Below are positions 7,138 to 61,175 of a stretch of 64,000 nt of DNA, piece after piece. Both the position numbers and the translations under genes were made by a program. The stretch's first letter is position 1, and every line of letters starts with the position of its first letter. The stretch comes from Pachysolen tannophilus NRRL Y-2460. Lineage: Eukaryota. The notes under the pieces were generated by a model. It made no database searches. It was not told where the DNA came from and saw nothing but the letters and a program-made list of their open reading frames with translations. The DNA lies in the NCBI GenBank assembly GCA_001661245.1, contig KV454012.1:1198848-1262847 (forward strand), written 5' to 3'.

Positions 7138-7765
7138 TTATCATAGATATTTCTTTCTAATATCAACAACAACCTTAAAAATATCAATAATCCCAACACT
7201 AATGATGATTATAACTCAATTGATGTCTTAAACATTAATTTATTTGCTTTTTCTATTTCTTGTCTTTTTTTTTTTTCTTTAGAAAAACTGTTATTCTTAC
7301 CAATGCAATAAACTTTTGTTGTATTTTTATAAATACACTTGCTTGATTTATATTTTCTACCCCAAACAAATTAAAAAAAAAAAAAATAAAATAAAATAAA
7401 ATAAATGATTTGCAAATAAGTTGAATAAACTCTAAAAACACTTGAATCAAATCACTATTCAAATATTTAAGCTCTATTCAAACTTATTTATGCTTTATTG
7501 TATTAATAACCTTACCGCCTTTTATATATTATAATTACAATTACAATTATAATATACAAAATAAATTTATTTAATTTAATTTTTCTTGTTTTGTCCTTCC
7601 TTCTCTTATTTGGATGTATCTCAACCGCGATAAAAAAAAAGGTTGAAAGAGGCAACGGGGAAAACAGGAATAATGAGGGCGGGCTTGGGCCAGATCATGA
7701 GCCGGAGAATGAGCCGGAGAATTAGTGAGAGTTTAGGCCTCGACGGAAAGAACAAAAACAGAAAC

Positions 7766-7796
<31 letters not shown>

Positions 7797-8228
7797 NNNN
7801 NNNNNNNNNNNNNNNNNNNNNNNNNNNNNNNNNNNNNNNNNNNNNNNNNNNNNNNNNNNNNNNNNNNNNNNNNNNNNNNNNNNNNNNNNNNNNNNNNNNN
7901 NNNNNNNNNNNNNNNNNNNNNNNNNNNNNNNNNNNNNNNNNNNNNNNNNNNNNNNNNNNNNNNNNNNNNNNNNNNNNNNNNNNNNNNNNNNNNNNNNNNN
8001 NNNNNNNNNNNNNNNNNNNNNNNNNNNNNNNNNNNNNNNNNNNNNNNNNNNNNNNNNNNNNNNNNNNNNNNNNNNNNNNNNNNNNNNNNNNNNNNNNNNN
8101 NNNNNNNNNNNNNNNNNNNNNNNNNNNNNNNNNNNNNNNNNNNNNNNNNNNNNNNNNNNNNNNNNNNNNNNNNNNNNNNNNNNNNNNNNNNNNNNNNNNN
8201 NNNNNNNNNNNNNNNNNNNNNNNNNNNN
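7797..8228. other. Assembly gap (N run) flanked by long poly(A) tracts
   Basis: Seen directly in the sequence. Confidence 1.
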
Positions 8229-8288
<60 letters not shown>

Positions 8289-8604
8289 ACTTTTAGGCCA
8301 GTATTCCGCCAGCTTGGGAGGGCTCAAGGGCGGTGATCTCTCTCTCTCTTTTTTTTTCTTCTCCGGCCGTTTTGTAGGCGGATAAGTGGTCGAGGATTAG
8401 GTGAATGCAATATTATGCATGAGAAGGTACGGTTTTTGTGTCACTGAACCAAGAGATGAGTTAGTTAATGAATGCTGTTGTGATTGAGACAACAGCTTGG
8501 CTTGGTGGGATTTTTTTTCCAAGGTTGACTTGATAAAAAGGCCGTTTGATAAAATTTAAGTTTCTTTTTCTTTTTTTTTTTTGGAGTTCAGTGTATTATG
8601 TATT

Positions 8605-36266: not shown

Positions 36267-38945
36267 ATGGTTGAAATGTCTAGTACGACAAGTAATACAG
36301 AATATAACGATTCAGCTGTTTTTCTTCAAAATTCGTCTCTAGTATATCCGATATCATGTGTTGAATGTAGAAGAAGAAAAATTAAATGTTGTAAAAGGTA
36401 TCCATGTAAACAATGTGTTAAAAGATCAATAAAATGTGAATTTCCAGAAAAATTTAGATCGATTGAAATTGGGGATATTATTAATAATGAAATTAGTAGA
36501 GATCCAAATATTATATCACCATTAAGTACTTCAGGTTCAAATATTTTATCTTCAACTATATCTGTTAATTTAGCAAAAGAAAATGAATCTTTAAAACTGA
36601 AAATTTCAAATTTAGAATCAAGATTGGAAAATATTAATTTTTTCAATAATAAAAGATTACTAAATAATAATAATAATAATAATAACTTACATGATGGTGA
36701 TGAAGATTTATATGAAGATATAGAATATAATGATTCAGAATTATCAAAGGAAAAATATTATGGTCCAAACTCTGCAATTTTTATGGTTAAATCAACTCTG
36801 GATGCTAAAAATTTGGAATTTGATCAATTTATAAAAGTTAAAACTGAATTAAAACATAAAAGAGAATTACCAATGTTATTAACGCCTGAAAATAATAATA
36901 ATAATAATAATAATAATAATTCATCATTTATAACAGATAATGAAAATCTTAAAATGTCAAATTTTTCATTAATTTGTCAATTGGTTTCAATTTTTTTCCA
37001 ATTAAGAAATTATTGTAATAATTTTATAAATGAAAAAGATGTATTTAATTTCTTACATAATTATGCTACGATTAAGAATTGGTCAAATGATGATGATTTA
37101 TTATTATTAATTATGATCATAGTTACAACTTTGAGAAGTATGAGAAGAGATGACCCTTTATTGGTTGAATATAATTTAAAATTCGAAGTTATAAATAGTA
37201 GATTAATGAAACAATTTGAACATTTAAAAAATGGTATTAGAAATGAAACTATAAGATCATTACAATCTTATGTCTTGGCATGTGAACATTATTATTATTA
37301 TTCTCAAGCTGAAAAATCATGGAACATGTTATTTCATACAGTAGCAAATGCATATTCTTTAGGATTACATGTTTATGATAAAGAAATTGAAATTTCTTTG
37401 AAAAATACTAAAAAAAATACTTTAAAAGTTATCCAAAATGATCCACGTACCTCATTATGGTTAACTATTAATTTCATAAGTTCTGTCTTGTGTTCAGTTG
37501 TTGGAAGACCAAATCCAGTTACTTTCACTTTTCAACCTTTAATAAAAAATCTTGATATAAAATTGAATTATAAAATAGCAATAAGTGAATTAATTAAAAA
37601 ATCAACGAAAATTTTAATTGAAAGTTATAAAGTTACTATAGATTATAAAAAAATAATGGAAATTGATGAACAATTTGAATCAGAAATAGAAATTTATAAT
37701 AAATTAATTTTAGATAATGCTGAAGAAAGACAACGTTTACAAGAATTAGAATTAGAAAAATTGAGGTATAGAACTAAGAGGCAACATTTAGATCATAATA
37801 ATAATAATCAAAGACAACCCACAAAAGCTATTAAACTGGAAAATCAAACTGATAATTCACTGAAAACTTATAGACATAATCAGGCAAATGATTTTAATTA
37901 TATTTTGAATAACGAAAAAGATTCAAAATTTTCTTCAATGGATTCATTATCATCTTCCGGAAACTCTCTGTCTTCATTTACAGAAAAATTTTCATTATTA
38001 GATACTGATTGTGAAACATATTGTGATTTGCTTTTATGTTATGCCAATAGATCTAAATTTCATCAACCTTTTATGTCAACTTATCAAACTTCAACAAAAA
38101 TTTTGTTAAATTCTGTTTTAAAAGTTTGCCATTATGCGATATTATTAATTAAGACATTACAGAAAAAAATTAATAATGTAAATTTTCTGGCCATATATCC
38201 ATTTTTTTATTGTTTTCTTTACCAATCTTTTATTGTATTTTACACTTTTTTACATTTAGATTTTGAAAATATTTTATGTTTTTATAAATTTGAAATCTTG
38301 GAGATTTCACAACACTTGGATCAATTGTACAAGTTGATTGACGATTTTTATTGGAAGCAGAATGCAATTAGAATCATCAAAAAGATTAAAGAGTTGGTTA
38401 ATAAGTTCAAGAGACAATATGAAAAATGGATCAAAGAAAGTAATACTGGAAATTTATATCCAATTTCATCAAACCAAAATTTGGCTAATTTAGCAAATGC
38501 TAACAAGAGTGTTGAATCACAATCTACACCAGTTTCACCTTTTGCAAATAATGGCTGTGACAGTCATAGCAATAGCAATAGAAACTTGAAATCTTTGTTT
38601 CCGGAAATATCAGAAAGAGAGAGCAGTATTAGAGTATCTAATGGTAGTGCTAATAACGTTAATGTCGGCTCTAACGTCAATGCCAATAACAACAATTTGT
38701 TCGGAATAGATACCAATACATTTCAATGGGATAAAACTTTATTTGACAATTTTACAGTGGATCCTGTATTAGGATTTGATTTAAATGATCCATTTTTCAT
38801 TTCAAACCCAGAAGGAGGTATACCAAACGATTATTTTGGAAACAATCGACTTAGTGATGGAAGCATTTCTCGTGGCTCAATAGAAGCTATGACTAGCACT
38901 GAAAATGTTAATGACACCAAAAAAACCTTAAAACGACAACGATAA
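36267..38945 (+). CDS. Zn(II)2Cys6 transcription factor with a fungal TF middle-homology region
   Basis: CVECRRRKIKCCKRYPCKQCVKRSIKC, coiled coil, YYGPNS, AYSLGLH. ATG at 36267 or 36276 (the track starts at GTG). Confidence 0.88.
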   Translation: MVEMSSTTSNTEYNDSAVFLQNSSLVYPISCVECRRRKIKCCKRYPCKQCVKRSIKCEFPEKFRSIEIGDIINNEISRDPNIISPLSTSGSNILSSTISVNLAKENESLKLKISNLESRLENINFFNNKRLLNNNNNNNNLHDGDEDLYEDIEYNDSELSKEKYYGPNSAIFMVKSTLDAKNLEFDQFIKVKTELKHKRELPMLLTPENNNNNNNNNNSSFITDNENLKMSNFSLICQLVSIFFQLRNYCNNFINEKDVFNFLHNYATIKNWSNDDDLLLLIMIIVTTLRSMRRDDPLLVEYNLKFEVINSRLMKQFEHLKNGIRNETIRSLQSYVLACEHYYYYSQAEKSWNMLFHTVANAYSLGLHVYDKEIEISLKNTKKNTLKVIQNDPRTSLWLTINFISSVLCSVVGRPNPVTFTFQPLIKNLDIKLNYKIAISELIKKSTKILIESYKVTIDYKKIMEIDEQFESEIEIYNKLILDNAEERQRLQELELEKLRYRTKRQHLDHNNNNQRQPTKAIKLENQTDNSLKTYRHNQANDFNYILNNEKDSKFSSMDSLSSSGNSLSSFTEKFSLLDTDCETYCDLLLCYANRSKFHQPFMSTYQTSTKILLNSVLKVCHYAILLIKTLQKKINNVNFLAIYPFFYCFLYQSFIVFYTFLHLDFENILCFYKFEILEISQHLDQLYKLIDDFYWKQNAIRIIKKIKELVNKFKRQYEKWIKESNTGNLYPISSNQNLANLANANKSVESQSTPVSPFANNGCDSHSNSNRNLKSLFPEISERESSIRVSNGSANNVNVGSNVNANNNNLFGIDTNTFQWDKTLFDNFTVDPVLGFDLNDPFFISNPEGGIPNDYFGNNRLSDGSISRGSIEAMTSTENVNDTKKTLKRQR

Positions 38946-39240
38946 ACATCATATCACCAACAACTTTGGAAAACCTGGGTTTTTTATCTTTTAATTTATT
39001 TTATTGTTTTTTATATTTATTAGAAATAGGGGGTTTCCCCCTAAATTATGTTTTTTTTTCTTTGAGACATTCGTTTTTTACCTTTTTCCTTCCCTTCACA
39101 CACTATAGACATATTGTATAATTCTTTTTGTTTTCTTTTCCCTTTTGATTTTTTTTAGCTTCTAAAGTAGTGACGAATGAAACGTGATAATAATATTCCT
39201 ATGATTATTGATTATTTATTTAAAAACTTCATTAAAATTT

Positions 39241-39923
39241 TTTCTATTATTATTATTTTTATTGTTAACAATGACTGGTTTATGGTTATTCTCCTTTGTA
39301 TTATGTACATATTGACCCAACAACAAACTCAAAGTTTCCAAATCAAATTTATTGAACTTTCCTGAACCTATTAAATTTTCCAAATATTTCTGTAGAGTAG
39401 TAATTAATGAAATATTATCAGAATTGTAATTTAATTTGGATTTTAAAGAACCATCAACCAATTTTCTAACAAGTTCTAAAGTTACAGGGAAAGATTTTTT
39501 TTTATCATTTAAAACACTTAGCTTGGAGTATACTTTAACAAAATTCCATATAGTTTCCCCATTGAATTGTAAATTTATCAAATTTACCCTTTTCACAAAT
39601 TCAAATACATATAATTTTAATATCTTGGAATTGGAAATAATATCAGGATTTATTGAACCTAGGGAAAAAATCTTAATAGATTCCTCCGCAGTTTCACCAA
39701 GATATGTTTTCAAAAATTCAAAAAGTTGTTGTTGAGACTTGACTGATAATTTTTCATCTCGAGATGCATATATGTCTATTAATTTTTGGAATAAAGTAAT
39801 ATAATACTCAATCAAATGAACCCAAATTACTGGATCTTTATCGATCAACGAAGACCTTAGTTTAAAAGGTGGATAAGCAACAATAGGAATATCACGAAAT
39901 ATTACACCCTGATCACCATTCAT
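39241..39923 (-). CDS. CUE3: CUE3 (RQT3/ASCC2-like) N-terminal half, in inverted orientation
   Basis: PIVAYPPFKLRSSLIDKDPVIWVHLIEYY, LGSINPDI, LVDGSLK and LIGSGKFNKFDL match the Cue3 N-terminus (PIVKFPPFKLRAQLIEKDPVVWLHLIETY...LIESGKFKRIDL). As it stands the frame stops at 39216. Confidence 0.9.
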
Positions 39924-40231
39924 TTCAGAAGATATAACCGACTATGAGCAAATCTTACTAAACCTAACTAGTAATGAACAATACTCATCCAAGATTAATT
40001 AAAACAATAAAGGAATTAAAAGAAAGAAAAAAAAAAAATTAAAGTTCTCAAGAATCAAAATTTTTGTACAAACCTCAAAAAAAAACCTGCCAAAAACTAT
40101 CAATAAGAACAAAGATATCAATGAAATCCAACTACCTTAGACCAATTCTCATTCTTATTTATTTGTTAATTAACGTTGGCTTTAACTAGATGATCTGTCT
40201 GTTATTAATCCAAATAACAAAAAAAAAAAAT

Positions 40232-40304
40232 TGCCTTCAGCCAGATTCGAACTGACGATCTCCTCATTACTAGTGAGGTGCCTTACCAACTTGGCCATAA
40301 AGGC
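40232..40304 (-). tRNA. tRNA-Thr(AGT)
   Basis: GCCTTTATGGCCAAGTTGGTAAGGCACCTCACT-AGT-AATGAGGAGATCGTCAGTTCGAATCTGGCTGAAGGCA. Has a cloverleaf fold, A and B boxes and a downstream poly(T) terminator. Confidence 0.96.
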
Positions 40305-40409
40305 TATTAATTTTTAGCGAAACTGATGATACTTATTTCACGTCTTTAGAGCATAGGATCCACAACTCTTGCCAATACAATTTTGTTATCCATTTACATG
40401 TTTGAAAAA

Positions 40410-41837
40410 AAAATTTTACCTTCTGCTTCTTATGAATTTTCTGGAAGATTTGTTAACGGAAAATGGTTTGAGATGCTAGAAGTGTTGTATAATAAGGGTA
40501 CAGGTGTTCATTCGAAACAGGTTTTCGAGATTGAAGTGATTTCAATATTATCATTACCCGTGGCCCAATTAAGTAAAGTGATTACCACAGATTTAAGAAT
40601 TGATAATTATTTAATGTTAATAAGACTTTATCCGCTTTTATGTAAAATTGTACTCTCCAAGAATTATCGATCGTTGAATCCAGGTTTGGAACAAAGGTTA
40701 CCATTTTTATCTAAGGAAGGAAGGAAATTGAAGCTGCTGCCAATCTTCGATACAAGTCATATTCAAATGGTGAGTGATTTGTTTCCACAGTTAAATACTT
40801 TGCAGATTAAAAAATTATTAGTTGATTGTGATAATAATATTGAAGTCGTCACTAATAAATTATTAGAAATGAGCGAGGAAAAGATACTGAACTTGGAAGA
40901 ATATAAAGAAATTCAAAATCCTTACTCCTCATCAAATAAGAGAACTGTATTTGATGGCGATGAAATATCGCAATTGAAATTGGACGACTCAAGAGTTTAT
41001 CTTGGTAAAAAGAATAAAATTGTTCATCCTACTGGTGATTTAGATAAAACTTCTGCTGCTGATTTGAAAAAGAAAACTTTAACTGCAGCATTAAGATTAC
41101 TATATGAATCAGACGAAGATGAACCTGATGATACTTACTTGGATCAAGAAAAGACATTTGGAGAGGCTCAATCAGCAGGAAAGAAACTTGAAATTGACTT
41201 GGAAAATGAAGAGTTAGAAGAAGAATTAGAGGATAGATCTTCTACTGTCAAGAAAATACCAACTAACCAAATGGATATGATTGAGCATAGACTATTCGCA
41301 GTTTTCAAGAAATCTCCTGAATTATTTGAGAAATCTGCAAGAAAATCGAAAAATAGGCAATTAATGAAGCAAGAAACAGGTTGGACTGATGAACAGATTG
41401 AGGGTTGGTACAGAATGTTATTTAAATCACCAAAGCGTTTTAAATTATTAGATGAGTATTATAATTTTGGAGGTGGTCCAAATGGTATTGGAAATCCGAA
41501 CAGAGGTACTTTGAAACCTAGCAGTTACAGGAAATCAAGGCGCGAAGAAGAAGAAGAAAAAGAGGAAGAAGAATCTAACACGGAGGATGATGACAAAAGT
41601 ACTACAGAAAGTAATAAGAATAACAGGTTTAATAATAATGGTAATAAGCATGAGCTGAAAATTATTTCTAATGTTAAAAAGGGAGATACGGATAATAGCA
41701 AGGAAGATGGTAAATCAAACGTTTCTGAGAAAAGTTCGAAGATCAAGCGTGCTAGAGATAATAAAAATAAGGCTAAAAAGGCTAATCATAATAGAAAACT
41801 GGGCCATGATAGAAAAATGGCTCAAGGGTTTTCGTAG
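40410..41837 (+). CDS. CUE3: CUE3 C-terminal half, including the CUE ubiquitin-binding domain
   Basis: FVNGKWFEMLEVLYNKG, CUE domain DLFPQLNTLQIKKLLVDCDNNIEVVTNKLLE, ALRLLYESDEDEPDDTY, TGWTDEQIEGWYRML, ANHNRK.GHDRK. The homology alignment continues from where the minus-strand half ends. Confidence 0.92.
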   Translation, partial: KILPSASYEFSGRFVNGKWFEMLEVLYNKGTGVHSKQVFEIEVISILSLPVAQLSKVITTDLRIDNYLMLIRLYPLLCKIVLSKNYRSLNPGLEQRLPFLSKEGRKLKLLPIFDTSHIQMVSDLFPQLNTLQIKKLLVDCDNNIEVVTNKLLEMSEEKILNLEEYKEIQNPYSSSNKRTVFDGDEISQLKLDDSRVYLGKKNKIVHPTGDLDKTSAADLKKKTLTAALRLLYESDEDEPDDTYLDQEKTFGEAQSAGKKLEIDLENEELEEELEDRSSTVKKIPTNQMDMIEHRLFAVFKKSPELFEKSARKSKNRQLMKQETGWTDEQIEGWYRMLFKSPKRFKLLDEYYNFGGGPNGIGNPNRGTLKPSSYRKSRREEEEEKEEEESNTEDDDKSTTESNKNNRFNNNGNKHELKIISNVKKGDTDNSKEDGKSNVSEKSSKIKRARDNKNKAKKANHNRKLGHDRKMAQGFS

Positions 41838-41959
41838 ATAATTAACTATCTTTTTTTTTTTTTTTTTTTTTGTGGTGTTTATGTATACTTATTTTATAAA
41901 GGCTGTAAATATAGAACTTAATCATTTTATTTATTTCTATTAAATTTTTTTTTGGAGAT

Positions 41960-43141
41960 TCATCTCCTTTTCTTATTGCTTCTTGTGTTCTTTTCTGTTT
42001 TTGCTTCTAATTCGTTCCACAAGGCTTCTTCTTCTTCTTTTTCTTGAGCTTCAGTATATACTCTTTTTTTCTTACGTTCATTTTTATCTTTTGTTGTAGT
42101 TTCTTCTTCTTCCATATCTTGCTCATCATCTAACATCATTACACAACTTATTTGTGAACCAATATAAATTTTAGCTATTTGTTCTCTTGAATCTAAATCA
42201 AATACTCTAACATATCTATCTAAACCACCTGTAACTAATAAATTCCCTTCGAGGTAAGAGTTCAATGACTGTATGGAACCAACAGCTCCTTTGTATTTAC
42301 CAATTAATTTCCCATTGGAGATATCAAATTTTGCTGTAGTTACATGAGTATCTGAACAAATAATTTCATTTGGATTATCTGTTCGTGAAAGTGTTAACAA
42401 AGGTTTTTCTGAAACTTTGAAATCAGCTATTGGTTTCCTACCATGTGAAGTATCATATTTTCTAATTTGTCCATATCTTGTAGCTGTTATCAACTTATAA
42501 GTATCACCAGTTACTGTTATATCTATGAACATTATTTTCGAAATCCAAATTGGTACTCGAAGATCTAATTTATCATTTTTAACATTTTTACCTTGAAATA
42601 TTATTTTTAATTCAAATTCACTATCATCATTTTTTTTAGGTATTAAAGAGATGATCTTCAAATCATTTTCTTGACCACCATATGCAAAGATATTCTTCTG
42701 TAAAGGATGAGCAATAAAAGCACAAACAGGACTTTTCACTGAATAATTTTTTTGTTTTTTATTCAAATCTTCAGGATCTATTATAGTTATTTTCCCACCT
42801 TGCGTGCATGAATAAATTAAACCAAACGATTCAAATAAACTAATGAAAACATCTTCTTTATTAGCAAAGCAACCCACAAATTCTTTAACAACCAAATAAT
42901 CCTCAACTTCTTTATCCCCCTGAACTGAATTATCATAAAAACAAATCTTACCATCCGATCTTGCACATATTATATAATTTTGATAAATGATAAAGTTTTG
43001 GATTTTACATAAACGAGTTTCCACACAATGTGTTTTAATTGAATCAGGTTGAGTAGCTTTCTGAGAAGAAGTATCAGTACCCCTCTTACATATAATCTCC
43101 TTCAAAGACCCAGAGTCATCTGCTGCTGCCAATATCCTCAT
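41960..43141 (-). CDS. NSA1: Pre-60S WD40 factor Nsa1/WDR74
   Basis: MRILAAADDSGSLKEI..GTDTS, AYGGQENDL, GKNVKNDKLDLRVPIWI, YDTSHGRKP, GGLDRYVRVFD. Confidence 0.93.
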   Translation of the reverse strand: MRILAAADDSGSLKEIICKRGTDTSSQKATQPDSIKTHCVETRLCKIQNFIIYQNYIICARSDGKICFYDNSVQGDKEVEDYLVVKEFVGCFANKEDVFISLFESFGLIYSCTQGGKITIIDPEDLNKKQKNYSVKSPVCAFIAHPLQKNIFAYGGQENDLKIISLIPKKNDDSEFELKIIFQGKNVKNDKLDLRVPIWISKIMFIDITVTGDTYKLITATRYGQIRKYDTSHGRKPIADFKVSEKPLLTLSRTDNPNEIICSDTHVTTAKFDISNGKLIGKYKGAVGSIQSLNSYLEGNLLVTGGLDRYVRVFDLDSREQIAKIYIGSQISCVMMLDDEQDMEEEETTTKDKNERKKKRVYTEAQEKEEEEALWNELEAKTEKNTRSNKKRR

Positions 43142-43500
43142 CTCCAACTGATTTTCTTCAAATTGATAAAAAACTGATATACTACTACTACTACTCTTTC
43201 ATCTAGAGCTCCAGATAGTACCACACAAAAAATTTTTACTCATTGCATGAAAACTTTTCATTAAAAAATTACACGACTTTAAACTCATTGAATAATACCA
43301 CAAAACTGTTGTGTTGATAATTGATTTTAGTTTTTCAGCGGGACAATAAGATGGGAGTTTTTTAAATGGCAATGGCAATGGTCTAGGATTAACAGAAAAA
43401 CATTTCTTTCTTTCTTTCTTTTTGGTGCTGCTATTTTCTAAATATAAATGGTGGTGGTTCACGACTTAGATCCATAAAATCAAAACAGCCTTTTGATCTT

Positions 43501-43572
43501 GCTCGTATGGCGCAGTGGTAGCGCAGCAGATTGCAAATCTGTTGGTCCTTAGTTCGAATCTGAGTGCGAGCT
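43501..43572 (+). tRNA. tRNA-Cys(GCA)
   Basis: GCTCGTATGGCGCAGTGGTAGCGCAGCAGATT-GCA-AATCTGTTGGTCCTTAGTTCGAATCTGAGTGCGAGCT, with poly(T) downstream. Confidence 0.97.
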
Positions 43573-43825
43573 TGAGAAAAAAATTTTTTTTTCATTTTAT
43601 TTTTCACTTAGAATTTTGCTGTGGGTGTTATAGCTCAGAATTTGTATGGGTGTAACTTCTACAACTATGTATGTGTTAATGTTTTGGAGTGAGTTTGTAG
43701 TTGTAATATTTAGCATTAAAATATAGATCTATATTGAAGGCACATAAAGAACTGAAGATTATAAAAAAGTTGGTTTGAAGCAAAAATGAAAAAAATAAAA
43801 AAAGAAAAAAAAGAATTATATAGGC

Positions 43826-43925: not shown

Positions 43926-46391
43926 CTAATCGCTCATATCTGCATCCCAATCATCATCATCATTGGCATTTATTAACATCAAGTTTTCACTATCATCAAT
44001 TTTTTGCCAGACACCCAAGTATTGATATTCATCTATACAATTATCGAAATTATTTTTGGTAAAACCTCTTGAAATGACTCTTTCTCTTATAGAATTCAAA
44101 TTTAAAATTTTGTGTCCATTTTCTGATCTTCTTGTGCTTAAATATAAATCTTTAATGATGTGATAAATTTTATTTATTGGAGAATTATCATCTTTATCCT
44201 TAGAATCATCTTCGTATAAAGATGATTTAGAAACTTGTATTAATCTTAATGCTTCATCAACATCATCCATTAGTACTGTATTATCAAATCTAATTCTTGC
44301 TAATGCTTGTGACATTCTAATAATACCTAATAAGGTTCTTGGAGTTGTATGGCTGAATGCTTTCTTGGAATTTTCGTTAAATTTTGAATCTTTTCTCATC
44401 TTTATATAAGATGAAATAATATAATCACTTACATCTTTGGTGATTACAGGTCTAAATTTCCTAGCATAAGAGATATATTGTCTAATTGTTGAAGATTCTA
44501 ATGGTTCAAATCCCATATCTGGTTGCCTGTTATGCATATGCACATAGGCAACATGCTGAGCTAATCTCTCATCATCTTCTCTAGAAGGACTATCCAACAT
44601 TAAAAACAATATATCAAATCTGGATAATAATGCTGCAGGAAGATTAATATTTTCAATTGGGGATAATCTAGGATTATATCTACCATATAAAGGATTTGCA
44701 GCTGCTAAAATTGATGTTCTAGCATTTAAAGTCGTAGTAATACCTGCTTTGGAAATAGAAATCGTTTGTTGTTCCATAACTTCATGAATAGCTGTTCTAT
44801 CTCCATCTTCCATCTTATCAAATTCATCGATACAACAGATACCATTATCTGCCAATACTAATGCTCCACCTTCTAAAACCATTTCATCAGTTATTGGATC
44901 TCTCATGACAGCAGCAGTTAAACCAACACCAGAAGAACCTTTACCAGTTGTATAAACGGCTCTAGGAGCCAATTTGGAAATAGATTTTAATAATTGCGAT
45001 TTGGCCACACCGGGATCTCCCATAAGACAAACATTTATATCACCTCTAATTCTCATACCATCACCAATTTCTTTTGTAACACCTCCAACTAATAATAATA
45101 AGAGTGCTTTCTTAACATCTTCATGTCCAAAAATTTCAGGAGCAATCGACCTAGCTAATTTACTGTAAACATCACCTTCTGCTCTTAATTTTTCAATAAG
45201 TGTTTCAATTTCAGGTGTAATACCTAAATTTTCATATTTTTTTTTATGTTGTCTAACATATTGAGCTTCAAGGTAAGTTTCAGTTAATAAACCAGCTCTA
45301 AGAGCTCTAAACCCCGTATAAGGAGCTGGTAAAAAGATTCCAGCAACATCAACTATATCACCTGGACTCATAGATCTAACTAAATCTCCATTAACATGAA
45401 TTGTTAATGTTCTTGGAATGTGTCCAACAGGTACCTGATCAGCCAATTCTTGAATTTTTACATCTTGGAAAGCACTAAATTTTGAAGCTCTGGTACTCAT
45501 AAATAATTTTCCCTTTGATTGATTTTCTTGACATTGAGGTGAAGTACATTCTACTAATGGAGTGAAAGTTCTAGATGAAACTTCTTGAAAAATTTCATAA
45601 CCACATTTATCACAAGTATAAGCATTAACCAAGACAGAAGGTTTAACATCTGAAACTCTAGTGACAATACCTCTAACAGTTATTAATTGACCAACATAAC
45701 TACCTTTAACTTCTCTAACAGCCAATGCTTTACCTCTTCCTCTATATATATCAGATAATGGTCTAAAATATAAACAATATCTTCTAGTTAATTTTGGAGG
45801 AAACAAGTTATCATTTTTATTTTGTTGAGAATTTGTATTACTATTTTCACCAGCCTCACCACTACCACCACCACCAAGGGCTAAATCATCTTGTCTTGCT
45901 TCTTGTTCTAATCTAATATTTCTCAATCTTCTTTGATGTAATATAACATCCAACACGTCATCTTTATAACTAACATCAACTGTAGGTTCAGGCATTATCT
46001 GGTCAACGACTTCACTAAATAAATTTATATAGTGGAAAGTATTTTTAACTATATTATCAACTATTGAAGTCTTATTATTTTGACTAAAATCACCCTGGCT
46101 TAAACTAGCCGCAGTCTCATAGGCTTTAATATCATCCAAATCAATATATAAAGTTGACAATTCTCTATTACTAACTTTTTGTAATAAATTCATATATTTG
46201 GGACCATTGGACATAATATCATTTTCATTTCCCATAGTGACATCTTGATCCATCTGATCATTAGTTGCTTCTTCATCGCGTGTACTACTTCCTTTCTTAA
46301 AATGTAATAAGAAATCCTCAATACTATCCTTTATATCATTATAGTTGATATTAATCTGAACCGAAGGTAAAATAGAAGTTGTAGTAGCCAT
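43926..46391 (-). CDS. MCM7: DNA replication licensing factor Mcm7
   Basis: Zinc finger CDKCG...[47 protein letters not shown]. Confidence 0.97.
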
Positions 46392-56592: not shown

Positions 56593-59500
56593 ATGACTAT
56601 AAACTTCTTGCCGGGGAATCCAGAATCTAGTTTAACAAGTGTGTGTTATGCAAATTGGCATAGTTTAGATATATTGTCGTATTGTTCAGGTAATAATTTG
56701 ATAATTATCATTAAGAACTTTCAATTTTTACAAACTATATATTTGGATGCCGATTGTTCATGTTGTGATATTAATAAACATAATGGTAAAATTGCCATTA
56801 CAGTTGCAGATAAGGTATTTATTTATAGACCAGATGTTCAAAATTATTTTGATTTTAAGTTTAATGGTAATGGGAAAAATTTAGGTTTGTTGAATGTTAG
56901 ATGGGAGTTGGAGATGACCATTATAAATGATCTTGACCATTCTAAGATCAATTGTATAAATTGGTCTGCAAATTGTGACTTGAAGAATAGTGAAGATAGT
57001 GATGATGAGGATGATTCTAAAACGAGAAAAGATGCTCCGGAAGAATTTAATACAGAGACAAATTCTGAATTAATAGTTGGATCTGATAAGTCTTTATCTT
57101 TTTGGAGACTTTTTTATAAAAATAAATCTTCTCCAACGAATAAAAAATTACATCCAAAATTGTTGTGGTTTAAAGAGCAACCTTCACCTATTTATTTGGT
57201 AAAAATTTCTCCTGATTCAGGTTTAATAGCGAGTTGTGGGAAATTTGATAAATTAGTTAAAATTTGGAAAAGACTTTCATTTGGTATTGAAAATGCAGAA
57301 TTTGATTTAAATTATTTAAAACATTCCCATTTTATAACAAACTTTAGATGGAAACTAACAAATGATGATTCAACAGATTTGCCCAAGGATCAAAGTGAAA
57401 TTTCAAATAGTGTATATTCTTCATTAAGTACACCAAGTTTATCGAGTACGAATTCAAAAGAAGTCAATACCTTATATACATTAACTACAGACTCAATAGT
57501 AAGAATATGGTCATCTTTTGAACTTGATAATAAACATTTTACACAATTCAATGGTGCATTAGATTTATTTGAAAATGGCGGTAGAGAATTTTGTACAAGT
57601 GGTTCAAATAAAACAACTGAAGACTTTAGATTTTTTGCAGTAATGGATAATTCGGTTGTTAATTTTTGCCTTAATAAGATGATAGATAATCTTATAGTAG
57701 AACAGGAACAACTTTTAAGGAATGGTAAAAATTTTTCATCAAGAAGGGGAAGCGGTAGCAGCATAACTTCATATTTGCAAGATAAAGAATTAAAATTAAC
57801 CAAACTATTAAATCAATCAATAGAATTATGTTTTGTGATTGATAAAGCGGGTTCAGTCCTTTTATACCTGATTGAAAATTTATCCATTAATCCACCAAAG
57901 TTGGCCAAGATAATAAAATTAAATAAAGAAAATAATATCAATGACTTAAGTTTAGGCCCAAACTGCTTCCCAAAACATGCTAAATATCTATCTTTCCAAG
58001 ATTTTGTCATATCAAGTCATTATAATTCTGTAACAGAAGAAACCGATAATTATATCAATCTCATAGTTCATGATTTGGAGAAAGGATCTATTAGACATAT
58101 TGAATTTACACTTAATGAAATATTCGATTCTATGTTTACTGTGAATGATACATCAGACAATAATTCTGCCTTCAGTGATTCCACCGTTAATAGTTTTCTA
58201 AGTAATTCCCATAGAAATGGAAATGGTTATTATCTTTCCCGCAATCAAAATAATTATAAAACTGAACATAATCGCGATTTTATTGGCACTTTACAACACA
58301 AATTTACAGGTCACAACAAGTCAATTAAAAGGTTGATTAGATCAAATGATGGTTCATCGCTTTTATCACTAACAAGATTTTCTGAAAGTTTTTTATGGTG
58401 TCCTATTAAATTAGGTAATACAAAAAGATCAAAGCATCATTCTTCCAAACATAAATCTCATCATTTACAATGTAATGATGCAATTAGCGGGAATACTTTA
58501 AGTCGTAAATCAGTTATTAAGACTTCTCTGCCCATTTTGGATGCTATAATATTAAATAAAAATGGTCATTACGTTATTTCTTTGATTGAAAATGAAATCA
58601 TATTATGGAACTGCATAGCAAAAAAAAAAAAATAGCTGAAAAAGTGGCTTCTTTAGTTACAAATATTAATTATAAACCTTTGAGTTTTATATTACTCCCC
58701 GAGGTTTCAAATAATACTAAAAACATTTACCATGTCGTTTCAATATACTCCAAAAAAGAAATCAAATCTTGGGAAATCGAAATAGGAGACTCGCATAAAG
58801 CTACCGCTATACGCAATTTTGAAATTGACAGCTTACCTTCTGAACAAGAAGATATATTGAGAATTTCACCCATTGATCCAGTCGGTTGGAATAATACTAT
58901 TGATTATGAAGATTCAAACCTATATAAATATGATATAAAATCTTCAATTCAGAGACCTGTGTTATCAATAATTGATAATAAGGGGAACTTGAGAATCTAC
59001 TCGATGAATATAGTTGGAGGAAATAGAATAGAGTGGATATTGAAAAGCTTGACAAGAACTAATATTAAAAATTGTAAGTTTTTCAGAGGATCAACTTTAA
59101 ACAAAATCGCAGTAGTTGATGAATCATCTAAAAAATTGTTCATTTGGGACTCAATGACAAAACTTTTGGAATATGAAGAAGAATTTGATCTGATTATCCA
59201 AGATTTGGATTGGACTTGCACAAATACTGACTTTAGATCGATATTAGCTGTTGGCTTTCAATCACGTGTGTTATTGTATACACAGCTAAGATATGACTAT
59301 ACCAATGAATCACCATCTTACGGTCCTATTAGATCAATTGATGTATCTGAGCTGACTTCACATAATATTGGAGATTCTATTTGGTTAGAAGATGGTACCT
59401 TAGTTATTGGTTCTGGGAATCAATTTTTTGTTATCGATAAGTCAATTGATGTTTCCAAAGATTTCTTATCACAAAGAGCAATTGGTTCTAAACAGATTAT

Positions 59501-61175
59501 AAGTGATGATATTTTTTCTTTATGTTCTGTTTTAAATGGTCCTTTACCTATTTTTCATCCTCAGTTTTTAATTCAATCATTGTTTTTAGAAAAACATGAA
59601 ATTGTCAAAAAAATTTTAGTTTTATTAAATGAAAAGCTAAGGTCTGTCGAATTAGACCCTGATGGTGATATCTTAACAGATATAAATAGTACATTAGGTA
59701 TTGATATTGATAAGCTTACTATTGAATTTAGTGATAATAATGATATCAGTGATAGTGGTTTTCAAAACCATAAATTGAAAAAACAAAACTATCAGTCTTT
59801 GTTTATTGATGGTAAAAATGATGGTGAAGATCATAAAATTTTTGATAAAAACTTGGCATTTTCTTTAATTGAAAAATTACAAAAAATGAAATTACCATTT
59901 TTAACAAGACATCAACAGATTACATTAGTTTCTGTAATAGAAACTGTATTAGACATTGATATTAATTACAAAAAAATTTTGGATAGTAATGGGTTAAGGT
60001 ATTATTTAGGTATGAAATTATTTCAATTAAATGCAACAAAAATTAAAAATGATCATTCTTTAATTTCAATTAGAGATATCAATTTTGCTTTACATAGTGG
60101 GAATAAGGATATTTTATTAAATATTGTAAATGAAATATCACATTTTGAACTTAATTGGTTAACAACGAAAAAATTAGGTTTAGTTTATTGGTTATCAAAT
60201 GGTAAATTGGTTGAAATTTTTGAAAAAATTGCTAAATTTGAATTTTTAAAATCTTCTGAAAGATTTAAAGATCCTTCAAAATGTTCAATTTTTTATTTGG
60301 CATTAAAGAAAAAGCAAATTTTAATTGGATTATGGAAAACAGCCACTGGTCATCCTGAACAACAAAAAATGGTTAAATTTTTAAGTAATGATTTTAAAGA
60401 AAGAAGATGGAAAACTGCTGCTTCTAAAAATGCATTTGCCTTGATGGGTAAACATCGTTATATTGAAGCTGCATGTTTTTTCCTTTTGGGAGATTCTTTA
60501 AAAGATTGCTGTAATGTTTTAATAAGACAAGTTAAAGATTTACAATTAGCAATTGGTGTTTCTAGGTGTTATGAAGGGAACGATGAAGGAGCCGTTTTCA
60601 AAGATATTTTAACATCTTATCTTTTACCGATTTCAATTCGTGATAACGATCGTTGGCTTAGAAGCCTTATCTATCATATGCTTGGGCAAAGAGAAAATTC
60701 AATTCAATGTTTAATCAGTGACGAAGAAGAAGTAGAAGAAGAAATAGAAGAAGAAAATGATGATGATGAAGAAGAAGAAGAACATACATCTTTGAGAAAA
60801 TCATTTTTAGAGTATGATCCAGTATTAATTGTATTATACAAGAATTTAAGACTACAAGGAGTCTCATCACCAAATGAATATAAATTCATTTTAAAGATAA
60901 TTTCAATCTACAATAGAATGGGTTGTGATCTACTATCTCTATATATTGTGAAAAATTGGAAATTCAAATACGATTTTATGGGCCAAAGTAACAACAACAA
61001 CCTTAAAAAAATTTCTTCACATACTTTCCAAACACCGTCTACAACCGTTCCAAATAATTCAACCAATACAACTCCATCAAATCAAGAACAAAAAATCGGT
61101 AGTGGCTTTGAAAAGAAAAAATTTGTGGAACCTCCTTCTTCTTTGGAGTTTGACATGGGTGCATTTGAATTTTAG
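56593..61175 (+). CDS. RAV1: RAVE complex subunit Rav1, apparently frameshifted at an A13 run (58620-58632)
   Basis: N part: MTINFLPGNP, SYCSGNNL, FTGHNKSI. C part: DLDWT, LYTQLRYDYTN, IGDSIW, LNGPLPIFHPQFL, FYLALKKK, RWKTAASKNAFALMGKHRY. Confidence 0.9.

Follow-up and report, generated by a model that had tools for sequence, protein, structure and literature searches.

The window, the whole 64,000-nucleotide stretch of Pachysolen tannophilus NRRL Y-2460 DNA analysed here, carries two open reading frames related to the ribosome quality-control gene CUE3. One runs on the minus strand (39216–39923, 235 aa) and the other on the plus strand (40398–41837, 479 aa), and between them lies a tRNA-Thr gene with anticodon AGT (40232–40304, minus strand), which was absent from an earlier sequence-only reading of the locus. 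The left neighbour is a gene for a Zn(2)-Cys(6) fungal Zn-cluster protein (36267–38945, plus strand), recognised in a domain search, and the left breakpoint of the inverted segment described below falls downstream of this gene. To the right lies NSA1 (41960–43141, minus strand), which was identified by a match to PDB 5z3g_V (Ribosome biogenesis protein NSA1, E 1.1e-47) and to WD40-type families. NSA1 and the 479-aa frame are convergent in the window, as the sequence-only reading had described, and CUE3 and NSA1 are also adjacent and convergent in S. cerevisiae. Further right, a tRNA-Cys(GCA) gene (43501–43572, plus strand) sits between NSA1 and the next gene and is overlain by a 54-aa frame (43431–43595, minus strand) that is surely spurious, while an 821-aa frame (43926–46391, minus strand) resembles, by eye, an MCM-family replicative helicase subunit with a Walker-type IDEFDKM stretch.

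The two CUE3-related frames lie on opposite strands and point apart from each other. The 235-aa frame matches S. cerevisiae Cue3 (PDB 7zpq, chain CB, for which 297 residues are deposited) over residues 19–196 with an E value of 1.4e-35, and the 479-aa frame matches the same chain over residues 204–294 (E 2.1e-08). The helical N-terminal domain that marks the Cue3/ASCC2 family is hence covered in two pieces which abut in the Cue3 alignment, as had been claimed from the sequence. A Pfam CUE domain (PF02845), the ubiquitin-binding domain expected after the helical domain, was detected at residues 119–159 of the 479-aa frame (E 1.1e-08; 34.9 bits, above the cut-off of 21.1), and this order places the gene in the Cue3/ASCC2 family. 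These matches, together with the fit of the rejoined frame to orthologs described below, confirm that the two frames are halves of one CUE3. In an alignment with 10 full-length orthologs, chosen from the 89 non-self matches of the 479-aa protein search, the two pieces meet in a poorly conserved linker.

Both proteins are in the public record, the 235-aa protein as P0001 and the 479-aa protein as P0008, and both derive from a contig of 2,193,613 bases, hence the public assembly itself contains the split. Neither junction in the window has an N. P0008 differs from the standard translation of the 479-aa frame at 5 of 479 residues, each a change from L to A at a CTG codon, which shows that CUG was read as alanine (NCBI table 26) when the record was annotated; under that table, five steps of the frame are read otherwise than by table 11. 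CUG as alanine is the code of the Pachysolen clade, after which table 26 is named (see also PMC4937558, PMC5951914).

Public sequencing data bear directly on the arrangement at this locus. Seven sequencing runs are listed, none of them recorded as RNA, and five contain the stretch, with a word share of 0.93 in every case. Runs X1, X2, X4 and X5 come from sample S1 (X1, X2 and X4 within study P1) and run X3 comes from sample S2 in study P2. Four of the five holder runs (X1–X4) were placed on positions 38800–42000, in all cases as Logan contigs and not as raw reads. Two types of contig were found in every one of these four runs. The first (2466–2469 letters) follows positions 38800–39231 on one strand and then abuts, on the other strand, a piece that runs from 40275 or 40276 to 40402. 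The joint is placed at 39231|40402 in X1 and X4 and at 39227|40406 in X2 and X3; the two placements differ by 4 nt because TTCA at 39228–39231 is the reverse complement of 40403–40406. The second type (2417–2496 letters) covers 39273–40251 on the minus strand, followed by 41 unplaced letters and then by 40403–41834 on the plus strand, with the minus-strand part ending at 40200 instead of 40251 in X4. A repeat at 39236–39272 was skipped in the read placement; we infer, solely from the equal letter count, that the 41 unplaced letters are 39232–39272.

Read together, the two contig types describe a single un-inverted order in S1 and S2, in which the left flank is followed by the segment's tRNA end, and the N-terminal part of CUE3 directly by its C-terminal part. 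Both types have depths of 70–197, equal to the depth of the flanks, and the flanks themselves are letter-identical to the window in X1–X4 (no other letters in either flank). The junctions of the window, 39231|39232 and 40402|40403, are bridged by no listed contig piece in any of the four runs. At both junctions the contigs therefore disagree with the assembly, and they support the reciprocal pair in four of four runs, bearing in mind that these are contigs and that S1 and S2 may not be the source of the assembly. A de Bruijn contig cannot create joins of this kind without a shared word of around 30 bases, and the ends of the segment share only 4 nt. The word shares agree with this picture: for a run in which nothing is missing except the words at the two junctions and at the differing homopolymer sites, a share of 0.94 is calculated, and all five holder runs have 0.93. 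The contigs show that the intact form is present and, since rare variants are dropped from them, cannot show that the inverted form is absent. A separate listing of joints, from which joints at repeats are dropped as mostly false, shows none, and our reading rests on the table of contig pieces.

From these contigs, the reversed segment is 1171 bp long (39232–40402) and contains codons 1–232 of CUE3, the region upstream of CUE3 and the tRNA-Thr gene. Its breakpoints are 39231|39232 and 40402|40403, shiftable by 4 nt owing to an inverted microhomology between TTCA (39228–39231, plus strand) and TGAA (40403–40406, plus strand); comparison of the sequences shows that the match fails at the fifth base. 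The apparent 235-aa frame consists of CUE3 residues 1–232, three foreign residues and a stop created by the flip, whereas the apparent 479-aa frame begins with two foreign residues from a chance ATG and continues with CUE3 residues 232–708. In the read-supported orientation the tRNA-Thr gene lies upstream of CUE3 and in the same direction, and the N-terminal segment is indeed the displaced piece, as the sequence-only reading had supposed.

Flipping 39232–40402 in silico, with zero bases altered, gives an open frame of 2127 bases that encodes 708 aa without an internal stop, and the proposal that a flip of about 1.17 kb would restore CUE3 holds now that the reversal and ortholog comparison it called for have been carried out. 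The flipped protein gives one BLASTP alignment that spans the join with each of the 10 full-length orthologs. With P0009, the nearest relative in the collection, identity is 50.5% over 701 columns (query 11–708, subject 8–648). Collinearity with the orthologs extends over the full length after the flip, and in the window as given it is found only in two pieces. The intact 708-aa protein has no gene call in the protein collection searched, where the best non-self match of the 479-aa protein is 46% identical.

The join in the flipped protein reads RKNFNE|KKILPSAS, and KNFNEK at this position aligns with the pattern [RK][NT][IV][NS]K in 8 of the 10 orthologs, with N in second place in 6 of the 10. 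A different join, NNNNR|KKILP, had been suggested from the sequence, along with a frame that opens only if an adjacent run holds 5 or 8 A. Neither suggestion survives: the contigs give the join above, and the flip of 39232–40402 is open with the A runs untouched. We reject the NNNNR|KKILP join with an adjusted A run, as it contradicts the contigs and drops residues whose counterparts in the orthologs form a conserved motif. Placing the join there deletes residues of the KNFNEK region, which is why 5 or 8 A seemed to be needed; the frame puzzle arose because the join was misplaced at a short repeat rather than at the true breakpoints.

That short repeat was proposed to have one arm at 39233–39244 and an inverted arm at 40404–40418, and both sequences were found at these positions. 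As a boundary of the segment, however, an inverted repeat of 12–15 nt could not be upheld, the arms occurring at chance frequency and the breakpoints coinciding with the 4-nt microhomology instead. The 12-mer occurs 12 times in the window with at most one mismatch, against 9.4 occurrences expected, and 25 of 100 shuffled sequences reach 12. Between 38900 and 41000 there are 159 inverted pairs of at least 10 nt, and the proposed pair falls outside the 25 longest. The left arm lies in CUE3 coding sequence in the read-supported orientation and the right arm lies inside the CUE3 coding sequence of the window (both plus strand), and in the read-supported orientation the two form a direct near-repeat, not an inverted pair.

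Other irregularities were seen in the assembly of this region, where G+C is 30.1%. The four placed runs share the same letters, different from those of the window, at five sites, 39050 (+T), 40039, 40041, 40076 (+A) and 40218 (+AA), which all lie in or beside runs of A or T and outside coding sequence. A run of 432 N occupies 7797–8228, with poly-A (at least 25 A) on both sides. It is a scaffold gap or a withheld stretch, and a 207-aa frame that spans it (7673–8296) is an untrustworthy gene call. RAV1 (56593–61175, plus strand) appears as two overlapping frames with a change of frame at a run of 13 A (58620–58632); the first (680 aa) matches PDB 9cop_x Rav1 (E 3.2e-53) and the second (856 aa) matches Pfam Rav1p_C (E 5.6e-224). 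Judged from the sequence, this split probably comes from a homopolymer that was miscounted in the assembly, or else from a true shift of frame.

At the tRNA-Thr gene (40222–40304), the summed word depth of the contigs is about five to six times that of the flanks (1007.7 against 175.8 in X1), and read contigs begin or end within the gene. This suggests that tRNA-Thr(AGT) is a multi-copy gene with several near-identical genomic copies, although depth taken from contigs is a poor measure. The tRNA gene was considered as a cause of misassembly and rejected: contigs break within it, yet neither of the discordant junctions falls there. Also rejected was a longer inverted repeat at the breakpoints that would emerge after homopolymer collapse and could mislead a run-length-compressed assembly, since only about three letters match by eye.

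We consider it probable that the split of CUE3 is an assembly artefact, the 1171-bp segment being reversed in the assembly only, because the read contigs of two samples show an intact CUE3. Misassembly was one of three options raised from the sequence, beside a recent disruption and an invertible switch, and it is the one that the data support. The outcome named for it, spanning reads with a contiguous CUE3, was observed in four of four runs at flank depth, as far as contigs can show it. On this explanation the organism would have one ordinary CUE3 of 708 codons in a locus that runs Zn-cluster gene, tRNA-Thr(AGT) and CUE3, all rightward, followed by NSA1 leftward. The assembly would carry 39232–40402 back to front, so that the CUE3 frame breaks off at codon 232. 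A stop would then happen to lie three codons beyond the left breakpoint, with a chance ATG two codons ahead of the right breakpoint, and gene callers would consequently report two proteins of 235 and 479 aa. The reversed form would have arisen as an error in assembly or in a finishing clone and would not be a state of the genome.

The position of the break also supports an artefact, as it falls inside the Cue3 helical domain (S. cerevisiae residues 1–297) and not at a domain border. Features of the flip itself count against it: its exact reciprocity at 4 nt of microhomology, with junctions free of N, has the look of a real microhomology-mediated inversion and matches no failure mode that we could tie to a specific assembler. 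The comparison with inversion errors in draft assemblies is similarly mixed. As in such errors, reads disagree with the assembly at two reciprocal junctions, and here a gap and homopolymer miscounts lie nearby; unlike them, the junctions here have no Ns and there is no repeat long enough to create ambiguity for an assembler.

The main rival is a real 1171-bp inversion private to the assembled isolate or clone, made by two breaks or by a template switch at TTCA/TGAA, which we regard as unlikely. Such an event would cut CUE3 in its Slh1-binding helical domain, and the outcome would be a null allele or a pair of fragments that share one upstream region for their expression. The exact reciprocity at a 4-nt microhomology and the junctions without N would be expected of it, and both pieces retain an ATG and a stop, although stops arise quickly by chance at 30% G+C. 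Samples S1 and S2 may differ from the sample behind the assembly, so that the assembled isolate could differ from them, and rare variants are dropped from contigs. Set against this, two samples from two studies are intact at full depth with flanks otherwise letter-identical to the window, the word share of every holder run is at most 0.93, and the assembly has other local errors. That the isolate truly carries a recent, exactly reciprocal flip at a 4-nt microhomology, which moved the tRNA gene, cut CUE3 and produced a natural RQT-deficient variant, is in our estimation rather improbable. Were it so, the pattern would be that of rejoined 4-nt staggered breaks or of microhomology-mediated repair, with two fragment frames facing away from a shared upstream region and the strain's other sequenced samples wild type. 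A literature search combining CUE3 with inversion listed no paper about the gene.

An invertible on/off switch for CUE3, with 39232–40402 present in both orientations within a population, had been raised from the sequence and is very improbable. Yeast flip-flop switches, such as the mating-type loci of methylotrophic yeasts and the 2-micron FLP system, depend on long inverted repeats or on a recombinase and the sites it acts on, and the inverted repeats of the known systems are of kilobase size. The likeness to them lies in a segment that can take two orientations, with a change in expression, and the sole point for a switch here is that the orientation differs between the assembly and the read contigs. 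In contrast to those systems, the ends of the segment share only 4 nt and the listed contig pieces of all four runs show a single orientation. No inverted repeat above chance was found at the two segment ends, given the 4-nt match, the 12-mer at chance level and away from the breakpoint (12 against 9.4), and the 159 pairs in 2.1 kb. Similarly, both orientations were not found in one population, the listed pieces of the four runs holding un-inverted junctions only, with the proviso that contigs cannot exclude a rare form. The repeats are thus too short, and the contigs too uniform in orientation, to lend the switch support.

Least credible of all, to the point of being nearly negligible, is a CUE3 truly and conservedly split in this lineage into two functional proteins. 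Two intact frames are called in the public record (P0001 and P0008), but P0009 (648 aa) and all 10 aligned orthologs are full length and the read contigs show a fused CUE3. Short relatives of the N-terminal part were considered as a sign of a split CUE3 elsewhere. From 577 candidates seven were retained, among them the protein of the window itself, and the other six are 43–52% identical and all look like fragments: five lie on contigs of 732–5759 bases, and two of the six are labelled partial (one of those five, and P0005 on a 2.5-Mb contig). Being fragment-like, they were rejected as evidence for a split gene.

The functions at stake are known from relatives of the protein. In S. cerevisiae, the N-terminal helical domain of Cue3 (residues 1–297) packs against and binds the helicase Slh1, and the CUE domain binds ubiquitin (PMC9938168); binding of Slh1 and of K63-linked ubiquitin is expected of a member of the Cue3/ASCC2 family. 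The authors of that paper state that this helical domain is also present at the N terminus of human ASCC2, which belongs to the ASC-1 complex (PMC9938168). The 708-aa protein resembles S. cerevisiae Cue3 (Rqt3, of the RQT complex; PDB 7zpq, 7zrs and 7zuw, chain CB) in having a helical domain followed by a CUE domain, and its gene is likewise convergent with NSA1. It differs in its length (708 aa, compared with 624 aa for S. cerevisiae Cue3; PMC9938168), in its extra low-complexity stretches and in having CUG read as alanine. Binding of Slh1 and ubiquitin by the 708-aa protein is predicted from its homology to Cue3. Should the flip be real in the assembled isolate, a disabled protein would be likelier than two working parts because the break lies inside the helical domain that packs against Slh1, and the locus would be of modest interest as a clean, microhomology-bounded inversion that inactivates an RQT subunit.

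The artefact that we favour carries a caution for reading AT-rich DNA, in which a plausible short inverted repeat can mislead while the true breakpoints lie a few bases off. It also matters for curation: in place of the single 708-aa Cue3 that this yeast most likely has, the public record appears to list two truncated proteins (235 and 479 aa), and comparative studies would then count a gene of ribosome quality control among those that are broken or split.
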